This document shows positions 16,522-46,915 of a DNA stretch of 64,000 bases, one piece after another. Each line of letters opens with the position of its first letter. The stretch's first letter is position 1. This stretch comes from Candidatus Limnocylindrales bacterium (GTDB lineage Bacteria; Chloroflexota; Limnocylindria; Limnocylindrales; CSP1-4). The notes under the pieces were generated by a model. The model searched no databases. It was not told where the DNA came from and saw nothing but the letters and a program-made list of their open reading frames with translations. A program made the position numbers and the translations under genes. The stretch spans positions 8,350-72,349 of the forward strand of contig JBPPMZ010000054.1 in the NCBI GenBank assembly GCA_051306295.1. The letters run 5' to 3'.

Positions 16522-16544
16522 CGACTTCGGAGTATACGGGCCGG

Positions 16545-21114: not shown

Positions 21115-21878
21115 CCGACCTGTCCCTCGTCCTGCCCGCCTTCAACGAGGCGGAGCGCATCGGTTCGGCCCTCGATGAGCTCTTTGGCTACTTGACCTCG
21201 GCGCCAGCCCGATCCCTCGGCTCGGTCGAGGTCCTCGTCGTGGACGACGGTTCGACCGACGACACGATGGCCCTCGTCGAGGCGCGTCCCGAGGGATCGG
21301 GTGCACTGCCGGGGGTCGCGCTTCGGGCTATGCACGTCCCCCACGCGGGCAAGGGCGCCGCGGTTCGCGCGGGCATGCTGGCGGCGCGCGGGAACCTGCT
21401 CATCTTTGCCGATGCCGACATGGCGACACCGCCGGCTGAGATCCCATCGCTCGTCAGCGCCCTTGCGGACCATGACGTTGCCCTAGGATCGCGAATCCAG
21501 CCCGACGGCTCGGACATGCGGGTCAGTCAGCCGATTGCCCGACGGCTGCTTGGCAAGGTCTTTCACGTCCTGGCGGCCGTCTGGGTGACCGGGCCGGTCA
21601 AGGACACGCAGTGTGGTTTCAAGGGCTTCACTCGCCAGGCAGCGCAGGACCTCTTCGCCCGCCAGCTGATTACCAGCATCGTCTTCGATGTGGAGCTTGT
21701 CTACCTTGCTCGCCGGCGCGGCTATCGGGTCGCGATCGTGCCCGTCCGCTGGCTTGATCGGCGCGGGTCGCGGATGCGCGCGGGACCGGGCCTTGCGTTC
21801 AGAGTCAGCTGGGATCTGTTGCGGATCCCGCTGCTTCATCGCGGCAGCGATCGCGCCGATCGTGCGCCTCGCGGGTGA
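21111..21878 (+). CDS. GT2 polyprenol-phosphate glycosyltransferase (Dpm1/Ppm1-like)
   Basis: MTDLSLVLPAFNEAERI...VLVVDDGSTDDT...IFADADMATP...DTQCGFKGF. ATGA overlap with the upstream gene. Confidence 0.85.
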   Translation: MTDLSLVLPAFNEAERIGSALDELFGYLTSAPARSLGSVEVLVVDDGSTDDTMALVEARPEGSGALPGVALRAMHVPHAGKGAAVRAGMLAARGNLLIFADADMATPPAEIPSLVSALADHDVALGSRIQPDGSDMRVSQPIARRLLGKVFHVLAAVWVTGPVKDTQCGFKGFTRQAAQDLFARQLITSIVFDVELVYLARRRGYRVAIVPVRWLDRRGSRMRAGPGLAFRVSWDLLRIPLLHRGSDRADRAPRG

Positions 21879-22978
21879 TCGATACCGTGCGCCTCGCGCT
21901 CCTGGGCAGGACCGCGCTGCCGATGGTCGCCGCGCTCTCGCTGCTGCTGGGTATCGCCCTCACGCTCGCCGCCGCTGGCGACACCCTGGGTTTCGACTTC
22001 CTCGCCTACCACCAGGCTGCGGTTCGCGTCCTAGCCGGCCAGCCGCTGTACGACATGTCATTCACGGAGACCGGCGGCTTCGGGCTGTTCTACTACCCGC
22101 CCACCTTCGCGCCCCTCATCCTCCCGCTCGGACTCCTCAGCGCGACGGCGGCGACCTGGACCTGGATCGGCCTGTCCATCGCCTTCTTCCTTGCGGGAGT
22201 CGCGATGCTTCCGGTCTCTCGATCGGTGCGCTGGTGGCTCATCCTGCTTGCGGGTTGGTCCTTCCCGTTCGTCTATGCCGTGAAGCTCGGGCAGGTCGGG
22301 CCCATCCTATTCGGGCTGTTCGCGCTCGGCTGGCGCTTCATCGATGAGCCGTCCCGACTCGGTGTGAGCGGGGCCGTCGGAGCCGCCATCAAGCTCCAAC
22401 CTGGGCTGATCCTGGTCTGGGCGCTCCTGACTCGTCGCGTAAAGGCTGTCTGGGTGGGCGGCCTTGTCCTTGGAGTCCTGGCCGTCCTGGCAGTGGGGCT
22501 CACCGGCATCGCAGTCTGGCCTGACTTCCTGACGCTGTTGCGGACGGTCACTGACCCGATCACCACGCCGCACAACTTCACGCCGGGGGCCGTGTCCTTC
22601 CAACTCGGCGTACCCGAGACCGTCGCCGGCGGGATCCAAGCGGCGAGTACGGCGGCACTGGTCGTCGTCTTCCTGGTGGCGATCCGTGCCTGCTCGGCGG
22701 AGGCGTCGTACCTCGTGGCGGTGATCGCCAGCCAGCTGGTCTCCCCGATCGTCTGGGACCACTACGCGATGCTGTTGCTGCTACCGGTCGCCTATCTCCT
22801 GGCCGCGGGTCGTTGGTGGGCGCTCGCGATCCCGGTCGCCACCGCGTGGCCACTGGTTGCACTCACGCCACCGGTCACCTACCCGGTCGTCTTCTGGCTC
22901 ACCCTCCTATCCACGCTCGTCGTCGGCCGCACGGAGCGGCGTGGCAGTCCGCTCGCAGCGGCGTCGCTCGCTCGATGA
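21875..22978 (+). CDS. GT87 (DUF2029) family polyprenol-P-sugar-dependent glycosyltransferase
   Basis: FDFLAYHQAAVRVLAGQPLYD...FYYPPTFAPLILPL...KLGQVGPILF...AAIKLQPGL pattern as in the PimE family; polytopic. Confidence 0.7.
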   Translation: MIDTVRLALLGRTALPMVAALSLLLGIALTLAAAGDTLGFDFLAYHQAAVRVLAGQPLYDMSFTETGGFGLFYYPPTFAPLILPLGLLSATAATWTWIGLSIAFFLAGVAMLPVSRSVRWWLILLAGWSFPFVYAVKLGQVGPILFGLFALGWRFIDEPSRLGVSGAVGAAIKLQPGLILVWALLTRRVKAVWVGGLVLGVLAVLAVGLTGIAVWPDFLTLLRTVTDPITTPHNFTPGAVSFQLGVPETVAGGIQAASTAALVVVFLVAIRACSAEASYLVAVIASQLVSPIVWDHYAMLLLLPVAYLLAAGRWWALAIPVATAWPLVALTPPVTYPVVFWLTLLSTLVVGRTERRGSPLAAASLAR

Positions 22979-24204
22979 GGCGCCGGCCGGATCGCGCGAC
23001 GTCCCTCGGCCTTGGGATCGCGCTCTGCTCGGCTGTCGTGTACTGGCTCGCCAACCGCGGCTTCGATGCCGGTCGGGGTGACTTCTTCTACCTCGCCGAT
23101 GCGTTCCTGCACGGGCGCACCTGGTTGGACTTCCGTCCCGGCTCCGCCGGCTCCAACGATGTCATCGTCGCCGGGAGTCGCTTCTACGTCCCGTTCGCGC
23201 CCTTTCCCGCCGTGGGCCTGATGCCGCTGGTGGCGATCATGGGCGCCGTCCCAGCCGACCAGGCCGAGTCTGCGATCAACGCCGTCCTGGCCGGGTCAAG
23301 CATCGGGTTGTGCTGGTGGCTCCTGGGCCGGGTTGGCGTCCACCCACTTCTCGACCGATCCTGGCTCACCATCCTGTTCGGATTCTCGACGCAGATCCTG
23401 TGGGTCACGACGCGGGGTGGCGTGTGGCACACCGGACACCTCGTCGCGACCATCCTGACCTTCGCCTGCCTGCTGGAGCTCTGGGGGTCGCGACGGGCGT
23501 GGCTCATCGGCCTGCTCGCAGGCGCCGCATTCATGACCCGGGCGCCACTGGCCTTCGCGATCGCGGGCTACGCGCTGCTGCTCGCGCCTGAGGGCACGCT
23601 CGCGGTGCGACGCACGGCCGCCGATGCGCTGGGCAGCCTGCGAATGTTGCCATGGTGGACATGGATCACCCTCGGTCTCGGCGTCCTGCCAGCTTTCATC
23701 TCGTTCTTCGCCTACAACCAGGTCCGCTTCGGAACGCCGTTCGAGTCTGGGTATGCGTTGGCCACGCTGCCCCTCTGGCTGGAGGCGCAACGTGAGCGCG
23801 GCATGTTTTCCGTCGCGCACCTCCCGATGAACCTCGACTACTTCCTGGTGCACCTGCCATCCGTCATTGCTGAACCGCCCTTCCTCAAACCGGACGGACT
23901 GGGGATGTCCGTCCTCCTCACGAGCCCCGGCCTCCTCTTTGCGATCCGCGCGGACTGGCGCCGCCGCGATGTCCAACTGCTTGGTTTGACGGCCGTCCTG
24001 GTTCTCATCCCGACATTGCTCTACTACGGCGGCGGGTGGCTCCAGTACGGGTACCGCTACTTTCTGGACTCGGTGCCATTCGTCCTCACCCTGTGCGGAC
24101 TCGCCGCTAGCCACCGGGGCCGCGTTGGTCTCGGTTGGCGCGCCATGATCGCGTTCGGGACAGGGATCATGGCGCTCGGCGTGTACTGGGCGTACAACCT
24201 GTGA
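22975..24204 (+). CDS. polytopic membrane protein, GT-C-like glycosyltransferase
   Basis: Internal Met 55 of ORF 22813..24204 (ATGA overlap). GDFFYLADAFLHGRTWLD first loop, about 11 TM helices. Confidence 0.55.
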   Translation: MRRRPDRATSLGLGIALCSAVVYWLANRGFDAGRGDFFYLADAFLHGRTWLDFRPGSAGSNDVIVAGSRFYVPFAPFPAVGLMPLVAIMGAVPADQAESAINAVLAGSSIGLCWWLLGRVGVHPLLDRSWLTILFGFSTQILWVTTRGGVWHTGHLVATILTFACLLELWGSRRAWLIGLLAGAAFMTRAPLAFAIAGYALLLAPEGTLAVRRTAADALGSLRMLPWWTWITLGLGVLPAFISFFAYNQVRFGTPFESGYALATLPLWLEAQRERGMFSVAHLPMNLDYFLVHLPSVIAEPPFLKPDGLGMSVLLTSPGLLFAIRADWRRRDVQLLGLTAVLVLIPTLLYYGGGWLQYGYRYFLDSVPFVLTLCGLAASHRGRVGLGWRAMIAFGTGIMALGVYWAYNL

Positions 24205-24968
24205 CCCCGACCGTCGCGCGACTGCGGCCGGTTTGGGTGGGCCTCGCTATCGTGTCTTTAGCCCTTGCCGCGGTGGAGTTCGTCGCGCTGTTCTGGATCA
24301 TCGATAGCCAGCAGTCGGTCGGCGTGGACCTCGAGTACTACCGATTCGTCGGGCAGCGCTGGCTGGACACCGGGGTGTTCTACACGGATCGCCAGTTGGC
24401 TGGTCCATACCAGGTCCAGACCCTCGTGGACAATCTCTACCCGCCACACACGCTGTACCTGTTCCTTCCGTTCCTGGTGCTGCCCAGCGTCCTGTGGTGG
24501 GCGATTCCGCTCGCGTTCATCAGTGCGGTGGTGTGGTGGTGCCGGCCAGCTGCCTGGGCGTGGCCGATCCTCGCCGCGATCGTGCTGTTCCCCAAGACAC
24601 CGAACCAGATCATCTACGGCAACACGGACATGTGGATCACCGCCTGGATCGCAGCCGGCGTGCGGTGGGGCTGGCCCGCGGTCCTGGTGACGATGAAACC
24701 GTCGCTCATCCCCTTCGCGGCGCTGGGCGTGCGATCGCGGTCATGGTGGATCGCGGCGATCATCCTGGGCATCGTGAGTCTGCCGTGGCTACCGCTCTGG
24801 TTGGACTACCCGATGGCGACGCTCAACTCGAGCGCCAACGCTGGCTATTCGTTCAGCAACTTGCCGTTCTTCGTCCTGCCCATCGTGGCTTGGGTCGGGT
24901 CGGCACGTCGGGCTGGTATGGGGTTCGGCCCGTGGTTCCTGCGGCTCGCCAGATCCCGCCGTGACTGA
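24201..24968 (+). CDS. miniature GT87/DUF2029-like polytopic membrane protein (paralog family member)
   Basis: GTG at 24201 (GTGA overlap) within ORF 24135..24968. VDLEYYRFVGQRWLDTG...GNTDMW...KPSLIPFA...WLD motifs are shared with the 24970..25722 gene. Confidence 0.5.
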   Translation: MTPTVARLRPVWVGLAIVSLALAAVEFVALFWIIDSQQSVGVDLEYYRFVGQRWLDTGVFYTDRQLAGPYQVQTLVDNLYPPHTLYLFLPFLVLPSVLWWAIPLAFISAVVWWCRPAAWAWPILAAIVLFPKTPNQIIYGNTDMWITAWIAAGVRWGWPAVLVTMKPSLIPFAALGVRSRSWWIAAIILGIVSLPWLPLWLDYPMATLNSSANAGYSFSNLPFFVLPIVAWVGSARRAGMGFGPWFLRLARSRRD

Positions 24969-24969
24969 C

Positions 24970-25722
24970 TCAGGTCTCTCGTCGACGGCCGTACCAGGCC
25001 GCGACCGGCATCGCCACTCCGGGCAGGGCCAGCGCGGAATACAGCAGACCACCTGGGGCGTGCATGACAACCTTGATCCAGTCCAACCACAGCAGGCCGA
25101 ATGGTGCGGACAGCCCGAGCACGATGACCCAGCCGAGCCACCACGCGCGTCGATGGATGCCGGCCAGCGCGAGTGGGGCGAGTGATGGCTTGATGAGCAC
25201 CAGCGGACCTGGCCACCCGAAACGAAGGCCAAGAGCCACCATGGCCGCGGCCCACATGTCCGTGTTGCCCGTCACGATCATGGCTGGTCCCCGCGGCCAG
25301 AGCACGCACAGCGAGAGCACGGCCCAAGCCATCGGCGATGGTCGCCAGGCCAGCACGCACCAGATGACGATCGCGATCGGCACCGCGTACCAGGCGATGG
25401 GCGGCAGGAAGGCGAAGGGCGTCATCAGCCACAGGGCGAGGGGCGGATGCAGGAAGGTCAGTGGAGCGTAGTCGAAGGGCGCGGCCACCTCGGACGCGAG
25501 GTACGGCGTCCCCGTGTCGAGGAAGCGACGAGCGGCGTCGACGTAGTGCCCGCGATCCCAATCGACCATGATGATCGGGACCGCTCCGGATGCATACCAT
25601 GCCAGCTGGACCACGAACAGGGTCAGGGACACGCCCACGATCAGGCGCGTCGCGAGGTTCCAGTCCCTGGGGCGGACCGCGCTCACCATGTGGTGGGGAT
25701 GCACTGCGGGGTTGACGGCCAT
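24970..25722 (-). CDS. miniature GT87/DUF2029-like polytopic membrane protein (paralog of 24201..24968)
   Basis: ORF 24970..25809; start uncertain (Met at 25809, 25722 or 25689). VDWDRGHYVDAARRFLDTG...GNTDMW...KPSLAPLA...WLDW. Confidence 0.5.
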   Translation of the reverse strand: MAVNPAVHPHHMVSAVRPRDWNLATRLIVGVSLTLFVVQLAWYASGAVPIIMVDWDRGHYVDAARRFLDTGTPYLASEVAAPFDYAPLTFLHPPLALWLMTPFAFLPPIAWYAVPIAIVIWCVLAWRPSPMAWAVLSLCVLWPRGPAMIVTGNTDMWAAAMVALGLRFGWPGPLVLIKPSLAPLALAGIHRRAWWLGWVIVLGLSAPFGLLWLDWIKVVMHAPGGLLYSALALPGVAMPVAAWYGRRRET

Positions 25723-25827
25723 AGGCTGACTGTAGCGCGTGGGCGGCATCTGGCCGCATGGGCTGTTCTTCTCACTTGACCCCACCCAGATAGGCACCGG
25801 TGACAGCAAGCCTCATATGGAGCCTTC

Positions 25828-28110
25828 ATGACCTCTCGCCGCATCGATATGCCTGACCCGCTGACTGACGTCAGGGCCAGACATCGAGTCTTGGTGCTCC
25901 TCATCTTCATGCTCTCGGGCGCAGCCGGTTTGATCTACGAGATCGTGTGGTCGCGGCAGCTCGTTCTGGTCTTCGGGAACACGACACAGGCGGTGTCGGC
26001 CATCTTGACCGGATTCTTTGGAGGCATGGCTATCGGCGCGGCCATCGGCGGTCGGATCGCGGATCGCGTCCGCTCCCCGCTGCGCCTGTATGGCGTCCTG
26101 GAGATCGCCCTCGTCGTCGTCGTCCTCGTGACGCCGCTGACGTTCGGGCTGATCAATGGCGTATACCGTGGGATCTACCCGCTGCTGGAGGGCACCCCGC
26201 TGTTGGCCCTTGTCCGGTTGGGGCTCGCGGTCGTCGCATTGGCGCCCGCCACGGTCATGATGGGCGCCACGTTCCCGGCGCTCGTCCGGCACTTCACGCG
26301 GTCGGATGACCTCGGTCAGGCCTTCGGCCGTCTGTACTCGGCCAACACGCTGGGGGCCATCGTCGGTACGCTCGTCGCCGGGCTCGTGCTCATCGAGGTC
26401 TTCGGACTGTCGGGCGCACTTCGAGTCGGTGCCGCCTGTTCGGCGATCGCGGGCGTCGTGGCCCTTGTCCTCGCCCGGTCGGATGGTGGGGCCACGGCCC
26501 GCGGCTCCGTTGCGCCGACCCTGCTCGTCCGCGAGGCCATCCACTGGCTGCCCCTCGTCGTCGCGTTCGTTTCGGGACTCACGTCGCTGGGCTACCAGGT
26601 GACCTGGACCCGACTCCTCGCATCGGGTACCGGTGGGCTCACCTACGTCTTCACGATCATCCTCGCGTTGTTCCTCGTCGGGATCGCGCTGGGCGCGGCG
26701 ACCTTCAACGTCCTGCGTCCCAGGATCAAGGATCCCGTCCGGCTCCTGGCGTGGTCGCAGATCGCCGTCGCCGCCCTGAGCGTCGCCGGCTTGATCCTGG
26801 TCATATCGCAGCCTCGAGCGGCCGACCCGAACCAGCTCTTGTTCTCCGTGCAGATCCTCTTCGGCTCGGCCGTCCTGACGGTGCTCCCGGTGACCTTCGT
26901 GATGGGGCTGGCCTTTCCGCTGGCGTCCGAGCTCCTGCGCGCCGACCAGGGCCATGCCGGCTCGGAGTCCGGCCTGCTCATCGCGGTGAACACGAGCGGG
27001 GCGATCCTGGGCAGCCTGGCGATCCCGTTCGTACTCATGCCCACGATCGGCTCACCCGCGATCATCGTCGTCCTGGCGATGACCAACGTCGCCCTTGGGG
27101 TGGGGCTCGCAGTCTGGCGCCGACCGGTGCAGATCCTGGTCGCCGCAACCGCCGTGAACGTCGGCGTGCTGATCGTCGTGCTCGCGCTCCAACCCGGCTT
27201 GATCCGCCAGCCGAACGAGGCGCGGATCGCCGAGCGGGGCTGGACACTCCTCGAGTCCACGGAGGACGAGATCGCCTCGGTGCAGGCCGGCCAGGGCCAG
27301 TTCACCCGCGAACTGTGGGTGGGCGGCACCTCGATGACCTTGCTGACGGTGGATGCCAAGCTCATGCCGATCCTGCCCCTCATCGCCCGACCTGAGGCGA
27401 CCCGCGCCCTCGTCGTCGCCTTCGGGATGGGGACGGCCTTTCGGTCGGCCCTCATCGCCGGCCTGCGCACGGACACGGTGGAGCTCGTCCCCAGCGTCCC
27501 CCGGATGTTCGGCTACTACTACGACGATGCAGCGGCCGTTCTGGCGGATCCGAACGGGAAGGTCTATGTCGCCGATGGCCGCAACCACCTCGAGCTGTCC
27601 GCGGACCGTTACGACATCATCGTGACGGACCCGCCGCCGCCGATCCAGAGCTCCGGCGTGTCGGTCATCTCGTCGCTCGAGTACTACGAGGCGGGCCGCG
27701 ACCACCTGACCGACGGCGGCGTGATGATGCAGTGGACCCCGTACGGGACGGCCGAGTCAGAGCTCAAGGAGCACATCCGCACGTTCGCGACGGTCTTCCC
27801 GCACGTGCTGGCCGTGCGCGGGTCCGGGGGGTACGGGTTCTACATGTTGGGGGCCATGGACGCGTTGACGTTGGAGCCGGCCGTGGCGCGCCAGATCCTC
27901 GCGCGCCCCGGCGTCCTGGAGGACATCTCCGGGGCGTATGACTCGCCCGAGACGACGATCGATGGCTGGATCGCGGAGATCGAGCGTCAGACGTGGCTTA
28001 TGGATGACCAGCTCCGGGCGTATATGGGCGACGGCCCGCTCATCACCGACGATCAGCCGCGGCCCGAGTACTTCCTCCTCCGCCTGCTCGCGGCGGATCG
28101 CGACCGGTGA
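25828..28110 (+). CDS. fused polytopic (MFS-like) membrane domain / spermidine-synthase-fold protein 1
   Basis: N-terminus LIFMLSGAAGLIYEIVWSRQLVLVFGNTTQAVSAIL plus about 12 TM helices. C-terminus VELVPSV...ADGRNHL...YDIIVTDPPPP has a SpeE-like Rossmann fold. Confidence 0.75.
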   Translation: MTSRRIDMPDPLTDVRARHRVLVLLIFMLSGAAGLIYEIVWSRQLVLVFGNTTQAVSAILTGFFGGMAIGAAIGGRIADRVRSPLRLYGVLEIALVVVVLVTPLTFGLINGVYRGIYPLLEGTPLLALVRLGLAVVALAPATVMMGATFPALVRHFTRSDDLGQAFGRLYSANTLGAIVGTLVAGLVLIEVFGLSGALRVGAACSAIAGVVALVLARSDGGATARGSVAPTLLVREAIHWLPLVVAFVSGLTSLGYQVTWTRLLASGTGGLTYVFTIILALFLVGIALGAATFNVLRPRIKDPVRLLAWSQIAVAALSVAGLILVISQPRAADPNQLLFSVQILFGSAVLTVLPVTFVMGLAFPLASELLRADQGHAGSESGLLIAVNTSGAILGSLAIPFVLMPTIGSPAIIVVLAMTNVALGVGLAVWRRPVQILVAATAVNVGVLIVVLALQPGLIRQPNEARIAERGWTLLESTEDEIASVQAGQGQFTRELWVGGTSMTLLTVDAKLMPILPLIARPEATRALVVAFGMGTAFRSALIAGLRTDTVELVPSVPRMFGYYYDDAAAVLADPNGKVYVADGRNHLELSADRYDIIVTDPPPPIQSSGVSVISSLEYYEAGRDHLTDGGVMMQWTPYGTAESELKEHIRTFATVFPHVLAVRGSGGYGFYMLGAMDALTLEPAVARQILARPGVLEDISGAYDSPETTIDGWIAEIERQTWLMDDQLRAYMGDGPLITDDQPRPEYFLLRLLAADRDR

Positions 28111-28150
28111 CCCTTTCTTCTCAGTTGACCGGCACGCCACACCCGCGACC

Positions 28151-30457
28151 ATGACCTCCGTCGACCCGCCCGGAGGCCCCATGACCGCCCGTTCCATCCC
28201 GCTTGCCCGTCCGATCATCGGCACAACGTTGCCGTTCGCGCTGCCGATCGGCCTGTCCGCGTTCCTGCTGTTCAGCGTGGAGCCCCTCATCGGCCGGCTG
28301 GTCCTGCCGATCTTCGGGGGGACGCCCGCCGTGTGGGCGACGACGCTCTTCTTCTTCCAGACGATCCTGCTGATCGGCTACCTGTACGGGCATCTCTCGA
28401 TCACGCGCCTGGGCTGGGTCGGCCCGCCGGTCCACCTTGCGGTGGCGGGCCTCGCGCTGGTCGCCCTGCTGATCGCGCCATCCGATATCTCGGGCCTTCG
28501 GGACACGGCGGTCGTCCCTGTGCTCGACCTGGTCCGTATCCTGTTCGTCATCATCGGCCTGCCGGCCATCGTCCTGACGACGACCACGCCGCTGGTCTCG
28601 GGCTGGTTCGAGGTGGCGCGCTCGCAGCGCGCCGGCGGCGACCCGTACTGGCTGTACGCCCTGAGCAACGGCGGCTCGCTCCTTGCCCTCCTCGCCTACC
28701 CGCTGGTCATCGAGCCGCGCCTGGGTCTCGCCGACCAGCGCGGGATCTGGGCCGTCGGCTACGCCCTCCTGGTCGTTCTGCTGGCCGTGGCCGGGATGCG
28801 TGTCGTCAGTCTGTTGCGGGCGCGGAGTGCTGTCGTCGGATCCCTGGCCGCTGGTCCGCTTGGTGCAGCTCCCGCGGCCTCCCGCGCCATCGACTGGCCC
28901 CGCCGCGCGCGCTGGCTGCTCCTGGCCGCCATCCCGTCCGGCCTCCTGTCGGCGGTGACCACCTTCATCGCCACGGACCTCGTCTCGGCACCGCTGCTGT
29001 GGGTCGCTCCACTGGCCATCTACCTGCTGACGTTCGTCATCGCGTTCTCGCCACGGGGCGGGCGGGCGATCCGACTGGCGAGCGTCGCGGCGCCCGCGAT
29101 GATCACCCTGTTGTGGGTCCCGTACGGCTCGGCCGGCGGCTGGCCCGTGCTGGCCGTCCTGGGCATGGAGCTCATCGCCTTCGGCGTGCTGGCAACCGCC
29201 CTTCATGGACGGCTCGCCCAGGATCGCCCGGATCCCGCTCACCTGACGGAGTTCTACCTCACCATATCGATCGGCGGCGCGCTGGCCAGCGCGTTCGTCG
29301 CGCTCGTCGCGCCGAGCATCTTCCCGGGCGTCTGGGAGCTCCCGATCCTGCTGGTCGGCGCGCTCGTCGCGCTGGCGCTGGTCGCGCCCGCGGCGGCGGC
29401 GAAGACACGTATCGCGCGCAGCCGCGGCCTCGACTTCGGGCCGTTCTTCGTCGGGTTCCAGGAACGCATGCTGCCCTACCTCGTCGCAGCCGCGTTGTTG
29501 GCCGCGTCGCTGCTCAGCAGCGGGGCCCTGGCGGCGGAGGCCGGCATCCGCTGGTTGCTCGTCGGCGGGCTCATCCTCCTCGTCGGCGCGCGGCCGTGGT
29601 TCCTGGTCGTGGCGACGACCCTCGTCCTGGCCCTTGCCACCTTCGTCCTCCAGCCACCGGCAGAGTTCCGGGCGCGCAGCTTCTTCGGGGTCACGGAGGT
29701 CCTGACCTCGCCGGAGGGCGACCTCAAGCTGCTCATGAACGGCACCACGGTGCATGGCTCGCAGGCGACCGATCCGGCGTTGCGTCGCCGACCCCAGAGC
29801 TACTACGTCCAGGCGGGGCCGGTCGGCGACCTGTTCGCCAACACCGACCGCCGCACGCGCAACGCGCCGGCCGTGGCCGTCACGGGCTTGGGCGGCGGAG
29901 CCATCGCCGCGTATGCACTGCCCGCGACGACGATGACGTTCTTCGAGATCGACCCGATCGTGATCCAGGTGGCGTCCGACCCCCGCTACTTCACCTACCT
30001 CACCGACGCACCGACCCGCCCGACCATCGTCGAAGGCGATGGTCGCCTGTCGCTCCGGAAGGTGCCGGACGGGCAGTACGACCTCCTGATCATGGATGCC
30101 TTCTCGTCCGATTCGGTCCCAGTCCATCTCCTGACCGCCGAGGCGATCACCGATGAGCTCCGGACGCTGGCGCCTGATGGATCGATCGCGTTCCACATCT
30201 CGAACCGGTATTACGACCTTGCGCCTGCCATCTCCGCGGCCCTCGCCGGGCATGGGATGACCGCCCTCGAGCGACGATATCAGCCTGACTCGACGCAGGA
30301 TCCCGGAGCGTCGCCGTCCCGCTGGCTTGCTGCCTCCAGCGACCCGTCCACCATCGACGCCCTCGGGGCCGCCGGCTGGGAGACTGTGACGCCCGGCGAG
30401 CGCCCGTTCACCGACGACTACGCGGACCTGCTCAGCTACCTGCAACTGGGGTCGTAG
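28151..30457 (+). CDS. fused polytopic membrane domain / spermidine-synthase-fold protein 2
   Basis: Internal Met 72 of ORF 27938..30457. FLLFSVEPLIGRLVLPIFGGTPAVW N-terminus, many TM helices. C-terminus VTGLGGGAIAAY...FFEIDP...EGDGRLSL...YDLLIMDAFSSD. Confidence 0.7.
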   Translation: MTSVDPPGGPMTARSIPLARPIIGTTLPFALPIGLSAFLLFSVEPLIGRLVLPIFGGTPAVWATTLFFFQTILLIGYLYGHLSITRLGWVGPPVHLAVAGLALVALLIAPSDISGLRDTAVVPVLDLVRILFVIIGLPAIVLTTTTPLVSGWFEVARSQRAGGDPYWLYALSNGGSLLALLAYPLVIEPRLGLADQRGIWAVGYALLVVLLAVAGMRVVSLLRARSAVVGSLAAGPLGAAPAASRAIDWPRRARWLLLAAIPSGLLSAVTTFIATDLVSAPLLWVAPLAIYLLTFVIAFSPRGGRAIRLASVAAPAMITLLWVPYGSAGGWPVLAVLGMELIAFGVLATALHGRLAQDRPDPAHLTEFYLTISIGGALASAFVALVAPSIFPGVWELPILLVGALVALALVAPAAAAKTRIARSRGLDFGPFFVGFQERMLPYLVAAALLAASLLSSGALAAEAGIRWLLVGGLILLVGARPWFLVVATTLVLALATFVLQPPAEFRARSFFGVTEVLTSPEGDLKLLMNGTTVHGSQATDPALRRRPQSYYVQAGPVGDLFANTDRRTRNAPAVAVTGLGGGAIAAYALPATTMTFFEIDPIVIQVASDPRYFTYLTDAPTRPTIVEGDGRLSLRKVPDGQYDLLIMDAFSSDSVPVHLLTAEAITDELRTLAPDGSIAFHISNRYYDLAPAISAALAGHGMTALERRYQPDSTQDPGASPSRWLAASSDPSTIDALGAAGWETVTPGERPFTDDYADLLSYLQLGS

Positions 30458-32480
30458 GCGCAGCCAGGTCGACGTCGGCCAAGAAGCGGAAGCGGGTCGC
30501 TAGCAGCCACGCCACCGCATACAGCCCACCGACGACGACCAGCAGGAACCCGTAGCCGCTGATGAGCGCGACGTATTCGACGGCTCCGCCGACGACGGCG
30601 CCGAGCAGATTCGAGGCGAACGCCATGTCCGCTGTCTTCGTATCACGGAACGAGTAGCTGAACACGAGGTTAGCGAAGAACACCGGCGCGAATGCGAGGG
30701 CAGCGGCCAGCGCGTAGCGCAGCCAGACCGGTTCGATGAGCAGGGTCGCCGGCGGCAGGACCAGGGTCAGCACGATCGACCCGAACAGGCCCGCATAGAG
30801 CACCCACGGACTCCGGATCCGCCAGCGCTGGTTGACGAGGATGGCCAGCAGGACGCTGGCCAGGACCGCGAAGAAGACCAGCGAGTTGACCAGCCACGTC
30901 GACCCGAACAGCAAGCTGAAGGTCACGAGGCTGCGGGTCTCAAGGAGCAGGAAGGCCACCCCCAGGATGAAGAAATGCGGGCTGAAGCGTCGCAGGGATG
31001 TCCCGCTGCGAATGGCCGCCCGTGCCACGAACAACACGGCGAACGCGATGATGATGGCGATCGCGCCCAGGTAGTACGGGGCGATGAACGGTTCCCTCAG
31101 ATAGAGGAACGGCCAATCGTCCGTCGCCGCCTGCGGCGGGGCGCCGATGTCGACCGGATCGATCGAATCCCCTGGGGGAGCGGCGCCGTCCAGGGCAGCA
31201 ACGAGTGGGCCGGCCGCCAGCGTCGCGGCCGTTTCCCCGTACGAGCGGACGATCGGCGGGGATCCAAACGCCGAGGCGAGCATCGCCGCCATCTTTTGTG
31301 GAATCCAGTCCTCACGGTAGAAGTTGTACATCACGAAGATGCCGTCATCGGTCAGGTGGTCCCGCGCCTCCCGGAACGCCTCGTCGGTGAAGAGGAACGA
31401 CTCCAGGCGCAGGTTCGCGCTGGTGCTGACGAGGGTGAGCGAGTCGGGCAGGGCCATAACGACTAGGTCGTACTCCGAGGTCGAGCGCCGCAGGAACGCG
31501 CGCCCGTCATCGTTGATGCGAGTGACCCGTGGATCGTCGTAGGGCCGGTTCGGGTGGTCGCGCACGCCGATCGCCTGGATCGCCGGATCGATCTCCACGG
31601 CATCCACGTGCTGCGCCCCACGGTCAAGGGCCACGGCGACGTCGGTGCCCGTACCGGCGCCGATGATCAGGACGTTGTCGTAGGTCTGCTCCGGGAACCA
31701 GCGATAGACCTGCTCGTAGAACGGATCGATCGTCTGGTCGATCGGCCACATCGCCTGGTGCGGGATGCCATTGACGTCGATCACCTTGTTGCCGCCGACC
31801 TCGTACTCATCGATCCGGTAGTACGGCGACCATGATCGCCCTGGCGTCGCTGTGGTGAAGACGACGATGATCACCGCGACGAGGGACGCCGCCGTCACCA
31901 GCGACGCTCGCGACAGGCCGTTGACGAGCCCGAGCGCCGACGCGATCACCCCCAGGACGAGGTACCAGATCAGCGGATCGGTGCCCGCCGCGGACAGGAT
32001 GGTGAACATGGCGATGCCCGTCATCGAGCCCAGGATGTCCACCGAGTACGCCTTGAGCGGCGGCATCGAGGTCAACAGCGGACCCAGCGGTACGGCGAGG
32101 CCGGCCATGATGACGGTCGTCACGATGACGAGCAGGGGCAGGATGAGGAAGTTGACGTCCGCTCCCTGGCTCTCACTGAGGCCGAAGAACACTTCGTCGG
32201 GCGAACCCAGGTGGATCGTGACGTTGACCTGGGTCACGAGCACGACCAGCGCCAGGAGCAGCGGACCAAAGGGCGAGATCGGCACCCGCCGCGGGTCGCG
32301 GCCCCACAGGATCCCGACGCCGATGCCCAGGAAGCTGGCCATCAACAGGAAGTTCCGGAAGAAGCCCACATAGATGACGTTGGCCGGGATCCAGCGGATG
32401 AGCAGCAGCTCGACGAAGAGCAGGCTCGTCGCGGTCAGGAACAGCCGCAGCGCTGGATGCTGGTATGGCGTCGTGGTCAA
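30432..32480 (-). CDS. fused polytopic membrane domain / spermidine-synthase-fold protein 3 (catalytic fold internal)
   Basis: LFVELLLIRWIPANV N-terminus plus 7 TM helices. Central VLIIGAGTGTDVAVAL...AVEIDP...DDGRAFL...YDLVVMALPDS, then about 6 further TM helices. Confidence 0.75.
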   Translation of the reverse strand: MTTTPYQHPALRLFLTATSLLFVELLLIRWIPANVIYVGFFRNFLLMASFLGIGVGILWGRDPRRVPISPFGPLLLALVVLVTQVNVTIHLGSPDEVFFGLSESQGADVNFLILPLLVIVTTVIMAGLAVPLGPLLTSMPPLKAYSVDILGSMTGIAMFTILSAAGTDPLIWYLVLGVIASALGLVNGLSRASLVTAASLVAVIIVVFTTATPGRSWSPYYRIDEYEVGGNKVIDVNGIPHQAMWPIDQTIDPFYEQVYRWFPEQTYDNVLIIGAGTGTDVAVALDRGAQHVDAVEIDPAIQAIGVRDHPNRPYDDPRVTRINDDGRAFLRRSTSEYDLVVMALPDSLTLVSTSANLRLESFLFTDEAFREARDHLTDDGIFVMYNFYREDWIPQKMAAMLASAFGSPPIVRSYGETAATLAAGPLVAALDGAAPPGDSIDPVDIGAPPQAATDDWPFLYLREPFIAPYYLGAIAIIIAFAVLFVARAAIRSGTSLRRFSPHFFILGVAFLLLETRSLVTFSLLFGSTWLVNSLVFFAVLASVLLAILVNQRWRIRSPWVLYAGLFGSIVLTLVLPPATLLIEPVWLRYALAAALAFAPVFFANLVFSYSFRDTKTADMAFASNLLGAVVGGAVEYVALISGYGFLLVVVGGLYAVAWLLATRFRFLADVDLAAPTTPVAGS

Positions 32481-32658: not shown

Positions 32659-33846
32659 ATGACCGCTCCCACCCTGCATGCGGAGCCTGCCTGTCCGGCC
32701 GCCGAGGAATCTGACCCGATCGCGAACCCGGCTGACGACACCGCCGCCTCGCTCCACGCTGAGCGCCGACCGTTCGCCGAGATCCCCGCCGCGACCTGGG
32801 ACGCCCTGGCCGCCCAGAGCCCGATGGCTACCCCCTTCTCCGCGTGGGCCTTCCACCGCGCCTGGTGGGACGCGTACGGCGCGAATGCGCACGAGGAGAC
32901 CCTCGTCGTCCTTGACCAGACCGGGGACATCGTCGCGATCGTGCCGCTCATGCATCGCCACGAGGTCGAGCCCTCGGACGTGCTGACGCACACGAAGATG
33001 CGCCACGGCGCGGACATCGAACTGACGGCCGTCCCTCCGTCGGCCAAAGCTGTCTTCTTCGGCGCCTCGTACCACGCCGACTACGCGACGATCCTCGCCG
33101 CTCCATCAACTCTCCCCGCCGTCGCGGAAGCGCTCGCCGTCTACTTCGCCGGGCCGGATGCCGGCCCGTGGGACGCCATCGACCTCCGCCGCCTGCGCTG
33201 CGGCGACCCGGCAGCCGATGCCTTGGCCGCCGCCCTGGGCACCCGCGAGATGAGCGAAGGGTGGACGCTCAACGTCGAACGCGAGGACGTCTGCCCGGTC
33301 GTCACCTTTCCGGACGACGCGGACCTGGACGGCTATCTCGCCACCCTGGGCAAGAAGGAGCGCCACGAGATCCGCCGCAAGGTCCGCCGCGCGGAGGCGG
33401 TCGGCCCCATCGAGCTCATCGACTCCGACGACCCGCTGCTCGACCTGGAGGCGTTCATCGACCTCCACCAGAAGCGCTGGGGCGCGGATGGGCTGTTCCC
33501 GCCGACCCCCGGTGGCGAGCAAAGTCGCGTCCTGTTCCGTCGCCTGTTCGAGCTCTTTGGGGCGGACGGCCCGCTGCGCCTGACCTTCCTGTCGGTCGGC
33601 GGTCGCCGGATCGCTGCCGGCATCCACTTCGAGACCGCGACCGACATCCTGTACTACAACGCCGGCGTCGATCCCGATGCGCGCGACCTGTCGCCGGGCG
33701 TGGTGATGGTCCATGCCTACGTGGTCCGCGCCCTGGCCACGGGCAAGCGCCGGATGGACTTCCTGCGCGGCAACGAGCCCTACAAGTACGAATGGGGCGC
33801 GCTGGACGAACCCATCCAGCGACTGCTGGTCCGACGAAGAGACTGA
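32659..33846 (+). CDS. GNAT-fold acyl/acetyltransferase, CelD/BcsL (FemAB-like) family
   Basis: KKERHEIRRKVRRAE...LHQKRWG...YYNAGVDPDARDLSPG...MDFLRGNEPYKYEWGA is typical of COG5653 proteins. Confidence 0.75.
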   Translation: MTAPTLHAEPACPAAEESDPIANPADDTAASLHAERRPFAEIPAATWDALAAQSPMATPFSAWAFHRAWWDAYGANAHEETLVVLDQTGDIVAIVPLMHRHEVEPSDVLTHTKMRHGADIELTAVPPSAKAVFFGASYHADYATILAAPSTLPAVAEALAVYFAGPDAGPWDAIDLRRLRCGDPAADALAAALGTREMSEGWTLNVEREDVCPVVTFPDDADLDGYLATLGKKERHEIRRKVRRAEAVGPIELIDSDDPLLDLEAFIDLHQKRWGADGLFPPTPGGEQSRVLFRRLFELFGADGPLRLTFLSVGGRRIAAGIHFETATDILYYNAGVDPDARDLSPGVVMVHAYVVRALATGKRRMDFLRGNEPYKYEWGALDEPIQRLLVRRRD

Positions 33847-33847
33847 C

Positions 33848-35053
33848 ATGAGCGCCCCGAGCCCCTTCGACCCGTGCCTGGAGATCGTCCAGCGCCCCAC
33901 CCTGGCCGGCGGCCGGCGGATCCGCGTCGTCCAGGTCCTGGCGACCGGCACCAACGGCGGCGCCCAGGAGCACCTCTACTCGCTGGTCACGCGGATGGAC
34001 CACACGCGCTACGACGTCTCGATCGTGTCGCTGTCGCCCGGCAGCGCCGCGCGCAAGCTCCAGAAGGCCGGCTTCGACGTCCTGGTCATCGATGAGCCCG
34101 ACGACGCCATCGCCGTCGGTGCGCTGGCGGCCCACCTGAGCGAGGTGCGGGCCGACGTCATCCACAACCACATGTTCCGGGCGGAGACGGTCGGCACGCG
34201 CGCGGCGATGGCGTTGGCGGAGATCGGCCATCGGCGACCGTACGTCGTGTCCACCGTCCACTCCAGCCGGATCCGCTCGGAGGAGGATCGCCGCCACCTG
34301 CGCGGCCTGACCCCGCACATGGATCAGCTCATCGCCGTCTCGCGCGCCATCGAACACAAGCTCTGCGACGAGGAGCGCATCCAGACGCCCGTTCGGCTCA
34401 TCTACAACGGCGTGGACCTGTCGCGCTACGACCACCAGGAGGCATGCTGCACGCTGCCCGCCGAGTACGGCATGGAGCCCGGCTCCCAGATCGTCGGCGT
34501 CATCGCGCGCCTGGAGCCCGAGAAGGGGCACCCGACGCTCCTGGAGGCCTGGCCGCAGGTCCTGCGTGCCGTGCCGGACGCCTACCTGCTCATCGTCGGA
34601 GAAGGCTCGCGTCGTGAGGCGCTGGAAGCGCAGGCACGCGACTTGCGCATCGCGCACCGGGTCGTGTTCACCGGGCGCCGCGATGACGTCCCCGCCGTGA
34701 CCGCCGCCCTGGATGTCGCCGTCCTGCCGTCCTATCGCGAGGCGCAGGGCCTGTCGATCCTGGAGGCGATGGCCCTCTCCCGGCCGGTCGTGGCGTCCAA
34801 CGTCGGCGGCATCCCCGAGATGATCGAAGCCGGCGTCACGGGCCTGCTCGTACCGCCGCACGACGCGGGCGCCCTCGCGGATGCGATCACCCGCCTGCTG
34901 CGCGATCACCCCTACGCGGACACGCTGGCGCGCGCCGGCCACGATCTCGTCCACGACCGCTTCTGCATCGAGCTGATGGTCAGCGCGGTCCAGACGATCT
35001 ATGACGAGGGCGCCCGAGCGGTCCGCCCGTCGGAGGTCGCGGCCGCCGTCTAG
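33848..35053 (+). CDS. GT4 (GT-B fold) glycosyltransferase
   Basis: Internal Met 46 of ORF 33713..35053. IRVVQVLATGTNGGAQEH N-terminus, and C-terminal SYREAQGLSILEAMALSRPVVASNVGGIPEMI EX7E motif. Confidence 0.9.
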   Translation: MSAPSPFDPCLEIVQRPTLAGGRRIRVVQVLATGTNGGAQEHLYSLVTRMDHTRYDVSIVSLSPGSAARKLQKAGFDVLVIDEPDDAIAVGALAAHLSEVRADVIHNHMFRAETVGTRAAMALAEIGHRRPYVVSTVHSSRIRSEEDRRHLRGLTPHMDQLIAVSRAIEHKLCDEERIQTPVRLIYNGVDLSRYDHQEACCTLPAEYGMEPGSQIVGVIARLEPEKGHPTLLEAWPQVLRAVPDAYLLIVGEGSRREALEAQARDLRIAHRVVFTGRRDDVPAVTAALDVAVLPSYREAQGLSILEAMALSRPVVASNVGGIPEMIEAGVTGLLVPPHDAGALADAITRLLRDHPYADTLARAGHDLVHDRFCIELMVSAVQTIYDEGARAVRPSEVAAAV

Positions 35054-36024: not shown

Positions 36025-37445
36025 TGTCCACGGAGCGCCTCTGGCGATCGCTGGCCGTCTTGTTGCCGGCGCTCGCCGCCATCCTCGCCCCGATGTCCAC
36101 GGTGGACCTCGCGTATCACCTGCGGGCCGGTACCGAGATCCTCGCCACCGCCGCCATCCCGACCACCGACACTTGGACCTTCACGGCCGCCGGCAGCGCC
36201 TGGTTCGATCAGCAGTGGGGCGCCCAGGTCATCTTCCGGCTCGTCGAGCAGATTGGCGGTTGGACGGGCCTCGTCGCGCTGCGTGCCTTAGCGACCGCTG
36301 TGATCTTCGCCTGCCTCGGCGTGATCGCGGCACGACGTGGTCTGGGCGCCAGGGGAGGCACCCTCCTGGTCGTCTTGGCCTTCGTGGTCGCCGCGCCAGC
36401 GATGGCCCTTCGACCACAGCTCTTCGGGATGGTGTGTTTCGCTATCGTCCTGCTGCTGCTCGAGGGCCGCCGATGGCACCCCGGTCGCCTGTGGTTGGTC
36501 CCCATCGTGGTAGCCGTCTGGGCCAACTTGCACGGCTCGTTCTTCCTGGGCCCGCTTGCTCTCGGACTCACGTGGCTCGCCGACGTCCACGACCGAGCGC
36601 CGTCGCCGCGCTCGACCCTGCTCGTGACGATGGCCAGCGTGGCAGGCGCCTGCCTCACGCCGGCTGGGCCGCTGGTGTGGGTATACGCGATCGGTCTGTC
36701 CGCGGACCCGACGGTCACCGCGCGCATCACGGAGTGGCAGCCGACCTCCCTGCGGACGCCAGCGGGCGTCGCCTTCTTCGCGTCCGTCGCCGCCGCCGCG
36801 GCGCTCATCGCTCGCCGCGCGACGACCGTCGACTGGCCGACCCTCGCCTGGCTGGGCGCGTTCGTCGCTATCGGTCTGTATGCGGAGCGTGGGATCGCGT
36901 GGTGGGCGCTGGCCGCCGCGGGGCCGGTCGCGGCGTTGCTCGCGCCGTCGGACGCGCCTAGGACGCGCCCGGGCCTACGTCCGGACCCGCGCGGCATCCG
37001 TCGGGTGAACGCGGTCATCGCTGGTGTGCTCGTGCTCGCCGGCGTCGGCCTGCTCCCATGGTGGCGACCACTGGATCCTGGAACCCAGGCGCCGGTCGCC
37101 GTCCTGACCGACGCGCCATCGGCCATCACCGCGGTCCTGCGCGAGAAGGCCACGGCCGAGGACCGGATCCTCAACCATCAGGCTTGGGGCTCCTGGCTGG
37201 AATACGCCGTGCCCGCGGCGCCCGTGGCGATCGATTCACGCATCGAGCTGTTCACGCCCGAGACGTGGGACCGCTATGAGCAGGTGATGGCCGGGGTCGA
37301 TGGCTGGCAGGCCCAGGTGGAAGCCTGGGGCGTGACGGTGGTCGTGCTCGAGGCGGAGGCGACCGGGGCTCGGGACCGTTTCGTCGCCGACGGCTGGCGC
37401 GTCCTCCATGAGGACGAGGACGGCTCGATCCTCCAGCACCCATGA
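36024..37445 (+). CDS. polytopic membrane protein with C-terminal extracytoplasmic domain (GT-C-like, family uncertain)
   Basis: Internal Met 83 of ORF 35778..37445 (TGATG overlap). VDLAYHLRAGTEIL...FDQQWGAQV...WANLHGSFFLGP, about 11 TM helices, then a ~130 aa soluble tail. Confidence 0.5.
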   Translation: MSTERLWRSLAVLLPALAAILAPMSTVDLAYHLRAGTEILATAAIPTTDTWTFTAAGSAWFDQQWGAQVIFRLVEQIGGWTGLVALRALATAVIFACLGVIAARRGLGARGGTLLVVLAFVVAAPAMALRPQLFGMVCFAIVLLLLEGRRWHPGRLWLVPIVVAVWANLHGSFFLGPLALGLTWLADVHDRAPSPRSTLLVTMASVAGACLTPAGPLVWVYAIGLSADPTVTARITEWQPTSLRTPAGVAFFASVAAAAALIARRATTVDWPTLAWLGAFVAIGLYAERGIAWWALAAAGPVAALLAPSDAPRTRPGLRPDPRGIRRVNAVIAGVLVLAGVGLLPWWRPLDPGTQAPVAVLTDAPSAITAVLREKATAEDRILNHQAWGSWLEYAVPAAPVAIDSRIELFTPETWDRYEQVMAGVDGWQAQVEAWGVTVVVLEAEATGARDRFVADGWRVLHEDEDGSILQHP

Positions 37446-38326
37446 CCGCGCACGGCATCCGCTGGCGGTTCATCGCGACCACCGTCGCGCGGCCGCTGCT
37501 CCCGCTCTGGTTCGCCGGGTACGCGGTGCTGATGCTCTACAACTACGGAACCCACGGCTTCCTGTTCCTCGACATCGCGGTCTATCGCGAGGCTGCACTG
37601 TCCGCGATCGCTGGCGGTGACCCGTGGGCAGCGCAAGTGGGAGGCCTCGCATTCGCCGCCCCACCACCAACACTTCTCCTGTTCCTCCCGGTCACCTTCC
37701 TGCCACTCGAGTTGGCCACACTCGTTGTCACCGTCGCACTTGCCGCCGCAGCCATCTGGTCGATCCGTCGCCTGCGCCTGCCATGGTGGTGGCTCCTGTT
37801 TCCGCCGCTCTTCGAGTGCCTCATCGTCGGTAACCCCGACGTGCTCGTCCTGGCCTTCCTGCTCATGCGCGGCCCGCTGGCCGGCGTCGCCGTAGTGGCC
37901 AAGGTCTATGGGGTCATCCCGCTCATCTACCAGCGTCGCTGGGGAGCGCTCCTGGTCGGTTGCGCACTGTCGGCCCTCACGCTCCCGTTGTGGCCGGCGT
38001 TCTTCGACAGCCTCGCCGATATCAACAGCAGCCTGGACAGCCAGTCCGAGGGTTTCAGCGCGTGGGGCACCTGGTGGTTGGTCCCGACTGCGCTCGCCCT
38101 GTGGGTCTTGCGTCGGAAGGGAGCGGAATGGCTGGTCGTGCCCGGTCTGTGGCCGCACACCCAGATCCACTACGGGGCCATGAGTCTGCCGGTGATGCGC
38201 CGCTACCCGTTGGCTGCGGCGATCATGGGCCTGGGAACGCCGTTGGCGCCGCCGATCGCGATTATCCTCATCGCGCTCCAGGAGCGGCTCGGCCTTGGCC
38301 CTCCGCCTGAGGAGCCACTGCCGTGA
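37442..38326 (+). CDS. miniature GT87/DUF2029-like polytopic membrane protein
   Basis: FLDIAVYREAALSAIAGGDPW...LPWWWLLFPPLFECLIVGNPD...VAKVYGV. ATGA overlap upstream. Confidence 0.5.
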   Translation: MTAHGIRWRFIATTVARPLLPLWFAGYAVLMLYNYGTHGFLFLDIAVYREAALSAIAGGDPWAAQVGGLAFAAPPPTLLLFLPVTFLPLELATLVVTVALAAAAIWSIRRLRLPWWWLLFPPLFECLIVGNPDVLVLAFLLMRGPLAGVAVVAKVYGVIPLIYQRRWGALLVGCALSALTLPLWPAFFDSLADINSSLDSQSEGFSAWGTWWLVPTALALWVLRRKGAEWLVVPGLWPHTQIHYGAMSLPVMRRYPLAAAIMGLGTPLAPPIAIILIALQERLGLGPPPEEPLP

Positions 38327-43097: not shown

Positions 43098-43107
43098 AGT
43101 CTGCCCG

Positions 43108-46911: not shown

Positions 46912-46915
46912 CGGC

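Follow-up and report, generated by a model that had tools for sequence, protein, structure and literature searches.

Membrane-fused spermidine-synthase-fold proteins in a Limnocylindrales glycan-assembly island: predicted outward adenosyl sites and a probable role other than polyamine synthesis

Positions 25828-32480 of a 64,000-nucleotide stretch of Candidatus Limnocylindrales contig JBPPMZ010000054.1 (the window, ~68% G+C) are filled by three long open reading frames (ORFs) with coding-type G+C at third codon positions (0.88-0.89), and their products, referred to here as P1, P2 and P3, each combine a multi-pass membrane domain with a domain of the spermidine synthase (SpeE) type. From residue conservation, family-model scores and predicted topology, we conclude that P1, P2 and P3 are very probably not polyamine synthases. 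The reading that we favor, at a probability of roughly 0.4, is that they would be outward-facing alkyltransferases of the S-adenosylmethionine (AdoMet, SAM) type acting on an envelope glycoconjugate, fed with cofactor or loaded with substrate by their own membrane domain. In its broader form (not polyamine synthesis, probably envelope modification) this reading is supported as far as computation goes.

P1 (25828..28110) and P2 (28181..30457) are co-directional on the plus strand, whereas P3 (30432..32480) lies on the minus strand and is convergent with P2, and the three genes are thus not the tandem series described in a preliminary description of this locus. P1 was recognized as a fused MFS-like/SpeE-fold protein from its ORF, a match to the NCBIfam family NF037959 and an AlphaFold2 (AF2) model, P2 as a fused MFS-like/SpeE-like protein from its NF037959 match, and P3, a permuted relative with a TTG start, from its ORF, the Pfam domain Spermine_synth and an AF2 model. 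The sizes first given for P1 (760 aa if translation starts at the first ATG, 738 aa in the public gene call P0001) and P3 (682 aa) stand, but P2 comes to 758 aa when counted from position 28181, a conserved M/V-T-A-R at which five orthologues from other loci start aligning, and reaches the 768 aa originally assigned to it only from the alternative ATG at 28151; its longest ORF runs from 27938 (27938-30457). The 3' ends of P2 and P3 overlap by 26 nt (30432-30457), leaving no room for separate terminators.

That each of the three proteins joins a membrane domain to a SpeE-like domain was confirmed by Pfam and NCBIfam scores and, for P1 and P3, by Foldseek. In P1, the membrane domain (residues 18-457; 25879..27198, plus strand) has 13 transmembrane (TM) helices in the AF2 model, comprising two six-TM repeats and a linker helix at residues 434-457, and the SpeE-fold domain, assigned by Foldseek and by profile against the Thermus thermophilus SpeE structure 1uir, occupies residues 462-760 (27211..28107, plus strand). 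In P2, hydropathy and the orthologue alignment place about 15 TM helices (12 + 3) in the membrane domain (residues 17-491; 28229..29653, plus strand), and the SpeE-like domain (residues 492-758; 29654..30454, plus strand) carries the motifs GLGGGA, FEID, GDGR, MDAFSSD and FTDDY. These counts, together with the 7 + 7 helices of P3, replace the 7-12 TM helices of the first description. The internal position of the catalytic fold in the third protein, with TM bundles on both sides, is borne out by the ORF and the AF2 model: an N-terminal seven-TM bundle (residues 9-212; 31845..32456, minus strand), homologous to P1 TM7-13 by hhalign and BLASTP, precedes the SpeE-fold domain (residues 215-460; 31101..31838, minus strand; Foldseek and profile against 1uir), and a C-terminal seven-TM bundle (residues 467-663; 30492..31082, minus strand) resembles the N-terminal half of P1 by BLASTP and AF2 helices.

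The case against polyamine synthesis lies largely in the active-site residues, which were read from profile alignments with the published roles of SpeE residues as a guide, using 71 diverse relatives for P1 (28-57% identity to P1), five orthologues for P2 and an ortholog alignment for P3. The substitutions reported initially, of the glycine loop by FGMGT, LGGGA and GAGTG and of the D-x-x-D-P motif by TDPPPP, DAFSSD and ALPDS, are present in the sequences as stated. The motifs of P1, on the plus strand, are FGMGT (residues 532-536, nt 27421-27435), VELV (551-554), DGRN (583-586), DPPPP (601-605, nt 27628-27642) and TDDQP (740-744); those of P3, on the minus strand, are GAGTGTD (274-280), VEID (295-298), DDGR (324-327), ALPDS (343-347) and TDDWP (453-457). 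The glycine loop of the P1 family reads (C/A/G)-F-G-M-G-T where SpeE has G-G-G-D/E-G-G, with G533 and G535 invariant, and the acid of GGG(D/E)G that anchors decarboxylated S-adenosylmethionine (dcSAM) aligns with M534 in P1 (a position that is hydrophobic or small in most relatives), with Gly in P2 (GLGGGA) and with T277 in P3. Among 479 family proteins, GxG[DE]G was found at motif I in none. After strand 4, P1 keeps the first Asp (D601, 69 of 71 relatives), and the S/T-T-D-P of SpeE becomes P-P-P-P (P604 in 64 of 71, P605 invariant), the second Asp being replaced by Pro; the Y-H-E of SpeE gives way to E/D-T-K (E/D in 50, T in 54 and K/R in 59 of the 71), with P1 itself having D-A-K. After strand 4, P2 has D639 and a further Asp five residues on.

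The residues expected of an adenosyl-binding site have been kept. The position of the ribose-binding Glu (E552 in P1) is E or D in 71 of 71 relatives, and the Asp of the DG motif (D583) is invariant and followed by G584 and R585 (each in at least 90%) and N586; the residues invariant among the five P2 orthologues are G569, G571, G573, E589, D620, R622, D639, D644, T744, D745 and D746, and P3 keeps G274, G276, G278, E296 and D325. The earlier statement that EID and DG are retained holds for the strand-2 Glu (VELV in P1, FEID in P2, VEID in P3) and for DG (ADGR, GDGR and DDGR), but P1, with VELV, has no EID. All three proteins thus have, in invariant or near-invariant form, the triad of class I AdoMet transferases, consisting of the motif I glycine loop, the strand-2 acid and the Asp after strand 3, and each ends its domain with T-D-D (ITDDQP, FTDDY and ATDDWP in P1, P2 and P3), which aligns with STDQNP of 1uir. 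Taken together, the alignments show that an adenosyl-binding site is under strong selection and that the dcSAM- and putrescine-specific features are gone; the profile alignment does not show the full set of dcSAM and putrescine ligands retained.

Compared with SpeE (T. thermophilus 1uir, T. maritima 1inl/1jq3 and human 2o06), the proteins share the fold, the strand-2 Glu, the DG Asp and T-D-x-x-P, and the Asp that comes first after strand 4 is common to SpeE, P1 and P2. Unlike SpeE, the proteins lack the acid of the glycine loop, replace Y-H-E (in the P1 family), have Pro for the second Asp (P1) or Ala for the first (P3), and are fused to a membrane domain, with the SpeE-fold domain predicted outside. 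Two SpeE-fold enzymes that use SAM, plant putrescine N-methyltransferase and METTL13 (in its C-terminal domain), have the same fold as P1 and P3 and have likewise lost the dcSAM-specific acid; they are soluble and cytosolic and act on putrescine or on a protein N-terminus or lysine, whereas the proteins described here are membrane-tethered. In plant putrescine N-methyltransferase, loss of the glycine-loop Asp accompanies the switch from dcSAM to SAM, and the loss of this acid here points to AdoMet rather than dcSAM. Two SAM-using SpeE-fold proteins also occur among the matches of the P1-family profile, METTL13 (5wcj, E 1.6e-06) and a UPF0020 methyltransferase (8vyd). The DPPPP of P1 stands where amino-methyltransferases have (D/N)PP(Y/F), a resemblance that serves as a lead.

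AF2 models were made for P1 and P3, and the SpeE assignment of P2 rests on sequence. In the P1 model (predicted local distance difference test, pLDDT, 81.4; predicted template-modelling score, pTM, 0.77) an alpha/beta domain at the C-terminus follows the 13 TM helices, and the P3 model (pLDDT 76.7, pTM 0.76) consists of seven helices, an alpha/beta domain at 215-460 and seven more helices. In Foldseek searches of the PDB, all top matches were SpeE for both P1 (1uir, 3anx, 4yuv; target-normalised template-modelling score, TM-score, ~0.6 over ~270-280 columns) and P3 (1uir, 3o4f, 1jq3; ~230 columns, root-mean-square deviation ~3.5-4), with target-normalised TM-scores of 0.5-0.67 across the SpeE matches of the two models. 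Profile comparisons agree: the P1-family profile, built from the 71 diverse relatives, matches the SpeE of T. thermophilus, T. maritima and B. subtilis at E values of 4e-30 to 5e-29 (3.9e-30 for 1uir), and the P3 profile matches 1uir at 6.3e-14. According to the models, P1 and P3 thus have the full SpeE fold including its N-terminal beta domain. The loops after strand 4 are modelled with low confidence (603-613 in P1, 345-362 in P3), at the position that the flexible gate-keeping loop has in SpeE.

In order to place this domain relative to the membrane, helix boundaries were taken from the AF2 models of P1 and P3 and Lys and Arg residues were then counted in the loops. Loops before odd-numbered helices held on average far more of them than the other loops, with 15.2 vs 3.15 per sequence in the 71 P1 relatives, 15.15 vs 0.55 in 53 P3 orthologues and 23.0 vs 4.2 in the five P2 orthologues, which under the positive-inside rule indicates cytoplasmic N-termini. 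The TM2-TM3 loop of the P1 family has G-R-x-x-D-R, resembling the cytoplasmic motif A of MFS proteins. Since an MFS six-helix half has both of its ends in the cytoplasm, a fused domain can lie outside only if the helices added at every junction are odd in number, and this is what is seen: 12+1 in P1, 12+3 in P2, and 6+1, the domain and 1+6 in P3. The SpeE-fold domain is therefore likely, by loop charge and helix parity, to lie outside the cytoplasm in all three proteins, which answers the question of membrane side left by the preliminary description and favors its option of coupled transport and modification.

The membrane domain of the P1 family shows an internal repeat of the conserved motifs E/Q-x4-R, G..P and Y..NT. 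Invariant or little-varied columns among the 71 relatives are E/Q38, W41, R43, G146, P150, Y170 and N173 in the first repeat and E/Q257, W260, R262, G360, P364 and N388 in the second. The E/Q, W and R positions (38, 41 and 43; 257, 260 and 262) fall close to the outer end of each repeat's first helix, and the others in helices 4-5 (G146, P150, Y170, N173) and 10-11 (G360, P364, N388). E-x4-R is common to P2 (V-E-P-L-I-G-R) and P3 (V-E-L-L-L-I-R).

With respect to family assignment, NF037959, "fused MFS/spermidine synthase", has a cut-off of 40 bits that P1 (92.9 bits) and P2 (51.3 bits) exceed and P3 (22.0 bits) does not reach. The architecture of that family, an MFS-like multi-pass domain followed by a SpeE-like domain, is likewise that of P1 and P2, and P3 differs in that the same parts are in permuted order, with the SpeE fold inserted between two membrane halves. 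The label given previously, fused MFS/spermidine synthase of no known function, therefore fits P1 and P2, the family having no function attached to it, but P3 falls under the cut-off. With Pfam Spermine_synth, P3 scores 33.3 bits and P1 21.7 bits, just under the cut-off of 22.9, and P2 is without any Pfam match, its SpeE-like domain giving partial matches to NCBIfam PRK04457 and NF037959. P1 and P2 are ordinary members of a named, uncharacterised family and P3 a permuted variant that the family model misses. The family is very large: a search with P1 gives 25,826 clusters (50% identity) at E <= 0.001, the stricter threshold of E <= 1e-30 still leaves 7,118, and full-length relatives at 28-45% identity are numerous. 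Some NF037959 relatives add C-terminal TPR repeats, which are uninformative on sidedness. One relative, P0380 (1227 aa), has a C-terminal pyridine-nucleotide-disulphide oxidoreductase segment (~890-1190) that was considered as a cytoplasmic clue and rejected, as it occurs in a single cluster, matches from profile position 64/291 onward and is missing the first FAD-binding motif; P0380 probably reflects a chimeric or truncated gene prediction.

The three proteins had been called paralogs, but their homology is remote: by BLASTP, P1 and P3 are 25% identical over 326 residues (E 1e-07), P2 and P3 30% over 142 residues, and P1 and P2 32% over 102 residues. Profile comparisons extend these matches, with P3 14-389 aligning to P1 247-640 by hhalign across seven helices and the soluble domain (probability 99.2%, E 8.4e-20) and the N-terminal half of P2 aligning to that of the P1 family (probability 96.6%, E 5.6e-10); additionally, P3 503-645 matches P1 27-194 by BLASTP (E 0.007). 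This modular homology indicates that P3 is a permuted arrangement of the parts found in P1. P1, P2 and P3 each form an orthologous group of their own, with >120 relatives at 70-91% identity for P1, from Limnocylindria metagenome proteins, and >120 at 72-88% for P3, and the relatives of P1 and P3 belong to Chloroflexota, Candidatus Limnocylindrales or Limnocylindria. Rather than recent paralogs, P1, P2 and P3 thus appear to be three divergent members of one superfamily.

The location of the genes in a glycan-assembly island, as first described, was confirmed by Pfam and NCBIfam, which assign GT-C, GT4, GT2 and sugar-nucleotide genes in abundance around them. Upstream of P1 are two PMT_2 GT-C genes (16545-18323 and 18182-19942, both minus strand; Pfam), a PIG-V-like gene (19840-21114, plus strand; Pfam), a GT87 gene (21758-22978, plus strand; Pfam) and an unassigned multi-TM gene of 463 aa without an NCBIfam name (22813-24204, plus strand), the last two being syntenic with P1 in other Limnocylindria. 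Downstream of P3, Pfam and NCBIfam identify genes for a FemAB-like GNAT protein (32659-33846), a GT4 (33713-35053), a further GT87 (37412-38326), UDP-glucose dehydrogenase (39281-40492) and an epimerase/dehydratase (40348-41514), all on the plus strand, and an ALG6/8-like GT-C (45613-46929) on the minus strand; a small GT2 (43075-43863, plus strand) has polyprenyl-/dolichyl-phosphate hexose synthases as its best NCBIfam models, all below cut-off. Such a gene set would suit a pathway that builds a glycan from lipid-phosphate sugars outside the membrane. Between the 463-aa gene and P1 lie two more unassigned multi-TM genes without a Pfam or NCBIfam match (24135-24968, plus strand; 24970-25809, minus strand). 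The products of this pair, of ~278 aa, cross-hit the same ORFs elsewhere and recur around the island; the two appear to be paralogous and are possibly small GT-C-like enzymes that escape recognition.

Conservation of this setting was evaluated at 81 loci with P1 relatives (79 from GTDB species genomes plus two others), obtained by a locus search with a 12-sequence subset, mostly Chloroflexota; loci with at least 4 kb on each side were binned by the score of the P1 relative, and genes of a panel of window proteins were counted within 6 kb. Where the P1 relative scored at least 900, GT-C-type panel genes were present at 14 of 14 loci and GNAT/GT4 genes also at 14 of 14; at scores of 750-900 the numbers were 9 of 14 and 8 of 14, and lower scores had fewer of both, although a panel of single window proteins is blind to divergent GT-C genes, which makes absence around distant relatives weak evidence. 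The usual order at close loci is GT87, 463-aa TM gene, P1, GNAT, GT4, UDP-glucose dehydrogenase, epimerase and GT2, all co-directional, with P2 and P3 as optional inserts between P1 and GNAT; all three genes occur together at only three of the 81 loci (L001, L043 and L071). In long-contig metagenome-assembled genomes (L001 at 15637-17823, L071, L067 and L074), P3 or P1 homologues are split over overlapping frames, which lowers their scores in the synteny bins, and the L001 gene call is a 400-aa Spermine_synth fragment; these splits are probably long-read frameshift errors or pseudogenes.

For distant relatives, eight contexts were sampled with precomputed Pfam assignments. At L087 the order is GT2, the fused gene, PMT_2 and then four GT87 genes with a methyltransferase; L082 has three YfhO-type GT-C genes and a GT2-methyltransferase, and the P0432 locus has a PMT_2 gene nearby. 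L085 (5868-9278) and L086 (4821-8231), which carry P0406 (42% identical to P1), have MFS_1, an arginase-family gene (a family including agmatinase) and a gene for a DAO-type FAD oxidase immediately before the fused gene; on the downstream side, L085 has an epimerase and a GT2. By the precomputed Pfam assignments, glycan genes were not found at L083, L084 or the P0407 locus, and the context of L088 is too short to judge. The suggested co-occurrence of the family with glycosylation genes therefore holds at the 14 close loci and at L087, L082 and the P0432 locus, but not at L083, L084 and the P0407 locus; proximity to GT-C clusters recurs without being universal. Two unrelated contigs have a DUF4349 gene a short distance upstream of the fused one (L083 6568-7755, P0409; L088 1735-2685, P0392), and DUF4349 could be a partner conserved within that subclade.

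In the mechanism that we propose, the SpeE-fold domain would sit on the outside of the cytoplasmic membrane, coupled to two six-helix MFS-type halves, and would bind an adenosyl cofactor, which we infer to be AdoMet rather than dcSAM. It would transfer methyl (or, with less likelihood, 3-amino-3-carboxypropyl) to a nucleophile of the putative acceptor, an envelope glycoconjugate, which the neighbouring GT-C enzymes would assemble outside from polyprenyl-phosphate sugars. As an outer adenosyl site needs a supply of cytoplasmic cofactor, an obligatory transporter-like fusion would offer one: the membrane domain might pass the cofactor to the outer active site and perhaps take the product back, a step that we regard as doubtful, or it might instead present a lipid-linked acceptor. 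The most specific version, a trans-membrane alkylation machine in which the MFS-like domain exports AdoMet (perhaps against product) into the fused outer site, there to alkylate a GT-C-made glycan or glycolipid, is unlikely.

This design has partial counterparts in known systems. In fused acyltransferase-3/SGNH proteins of the OafA/OafB type, a membrane domain moves a donor group from a cytoplasmic cofactor to an outer glycan-modifying domain, the same design principle as proposed here, although folds and chemistry are unrelated (the acetyl of acetyl-CoA as opposed to an alkyl group from an adenosyl donor). In plants, methylation of Golgi polysaccharides needs MFS-family SAM transporters that bring SAM to the lumen (bioRxiv 10.1101/2021.07.06.451061). 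The pairing of such a transporter (GoSAMT, an MFS protein) with luminal methyltransferases follows the same logic, that methylation of non-cytosolic glycans needs SAM across a membrane, but in plants the transporter and the methyltransferase are separate proteins of unrelated families, whereas here they would be one polypeptide.

Several observations weigh against the favored reading of an outward-facing alkyltransferase. The invariant A343 of P3 replaces the first Asp of D-x-x-D, so that the catalytic Asp of SpeE is lost even though the second (D346) is kept. The outward placement of the domain, however likely, is a prediction, and the helix count of P2 is less certain, TM14 being of 13 residues. 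The match of P1 to Pfam MFS_1 (residues 25-395) reaches 29.2 bits vs a gathering score of 33.4, and P2 and P3 are without an MFS_1 match; relatives of P1 do pass it (e.g., P0308, 44.4 bits). About half of the sampled distant relatives are without nearby glycan genes, and the neighbours of the P0406 subclade hint at a polyamine or guanidino link. We know of no bacterial system that exports AdoMet for extracellular use, and literature searches on the family name and on membrane-bound or transmembrane spermidine-synthase-like proteins returned no paper and no experiment on this family; papers mentioning M. tuberculosis Rv2601 held nothing on topology. Some of these points would be accommodated if the outer SpeE-fold domain were a non-catalytic binding or scaffold module that holds a lipid-linked or polymeric glycan or organises the GT-C enzymes, with a membrane domain that could flip polyprenyl-phosphate sugars. 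A nucleotide cofactor is unexpected outside the cell, the island needs a flippase for polyprenyl-phosphate sugars and none is recognisable in it by Pfam or NCBIfam, the fused gene at L087 is directly flanked by a small GT2 and GT-C genes, and a module of this kind could do without the catalytic Asp missing from P3. However, the invariant residues are precisely the adenosyl-binding set of class I transferases, and P1 and P2 also retain the Asp that follows strand 4, neither of which is expected of a sugar or lipid binder, and many family members are found away from glycan genes, so that we consider this reading improbable.

Members in non-glycan contexts would be easier to understand if the proteins were uptake or sensing devices, in which the outer domain captures an adenosyl compound or polyamine (methylthioadenosine, SAM or spermidine) for import by the fused MFS domain; the predicted outward domain fused to an MFS-like domain, the conserved adenosyl-binding residues and the MFS_1, arginase-family and amine-oxidase-like genes adjoining a distant relative are all consistent with this. 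It would nevertheless leave the strict operon-like placing of P1 in the Limnocylindria glycan island unexplained, MFS transporters are not known to use fused binding domains, and D601 and the DPPPP loop, conserved where SpeE has its catalytic position, suggest chemistry over capture, which together make such a function quite improbable. Least probable is that the proteins are genuine membrane-bound aminopropyltransferases using dcSAM in the cytoplasm. The SpeE fold, the partial SpeE-model matches (P1 240-674 matches the membrane-SpeE model PRK03612) and the label "spermidine synthase" that the Joint Genome Institute (JGI) gives many homologues all point in that direction, but the best scores are far under the equivalog cut-offs (89.6 vs 472 for PRK03612, 43.0 vs 260 for PRK00811 and 36.1 vs 249.55 for TIGR00417), neither the three proteins nor any of the 479 relatives has the acid that anchors dcSAM, putrescine-site residues are changed, including the D-x-x-D of P1 and P3, and the domain is predicted to lie outside the cytoplasm. 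The preliminary description had already held polyamine synthesis to be the less likely role, and these data strengthen that view.

The label "spermidine synthase" is applied routinely to such proteins in public databases, and the residue evidence suggests that it is wrong for these three groups. If the predicted topology is right, an enzyme with an adenosyl cofactor would be displayed where the cofactor is thought to be absent, implying a hidden cofactor-export step, and an uncultured bacterial class of which little is known would have a way to decorate envelope glycans once these are exported. An AdoMet-exporting machine, if true, would be the first bacterial route to AdoMet chemistry outside the cytoplasmic membrane and would provide a function for a family of thousands of sequence clusters. 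The interest of these proteins thus lies in the predicted outward cofactor site, which is directly testable.

Two further features were noted in the window. The Rfam model RF01786 (66.6 bits vs a gathering score of 53.5, E 1.1e-12) identifies a cyclic di-GMP-II riboswitch aptamer at 56275-56358 on the minus strand, in a stretch of lower G+C (0.60 at 56-58 kb) where a codon-position G+C filter gave no genes at ~54.4-60.2 kb. At the upstream edge of the island, genes at 14654-16689 on the minus strand encode a response regulator of the LuxR type together with a HisKA_3 histidine kinase, and a similar pair lies near the fused gene on the P0432 contig.

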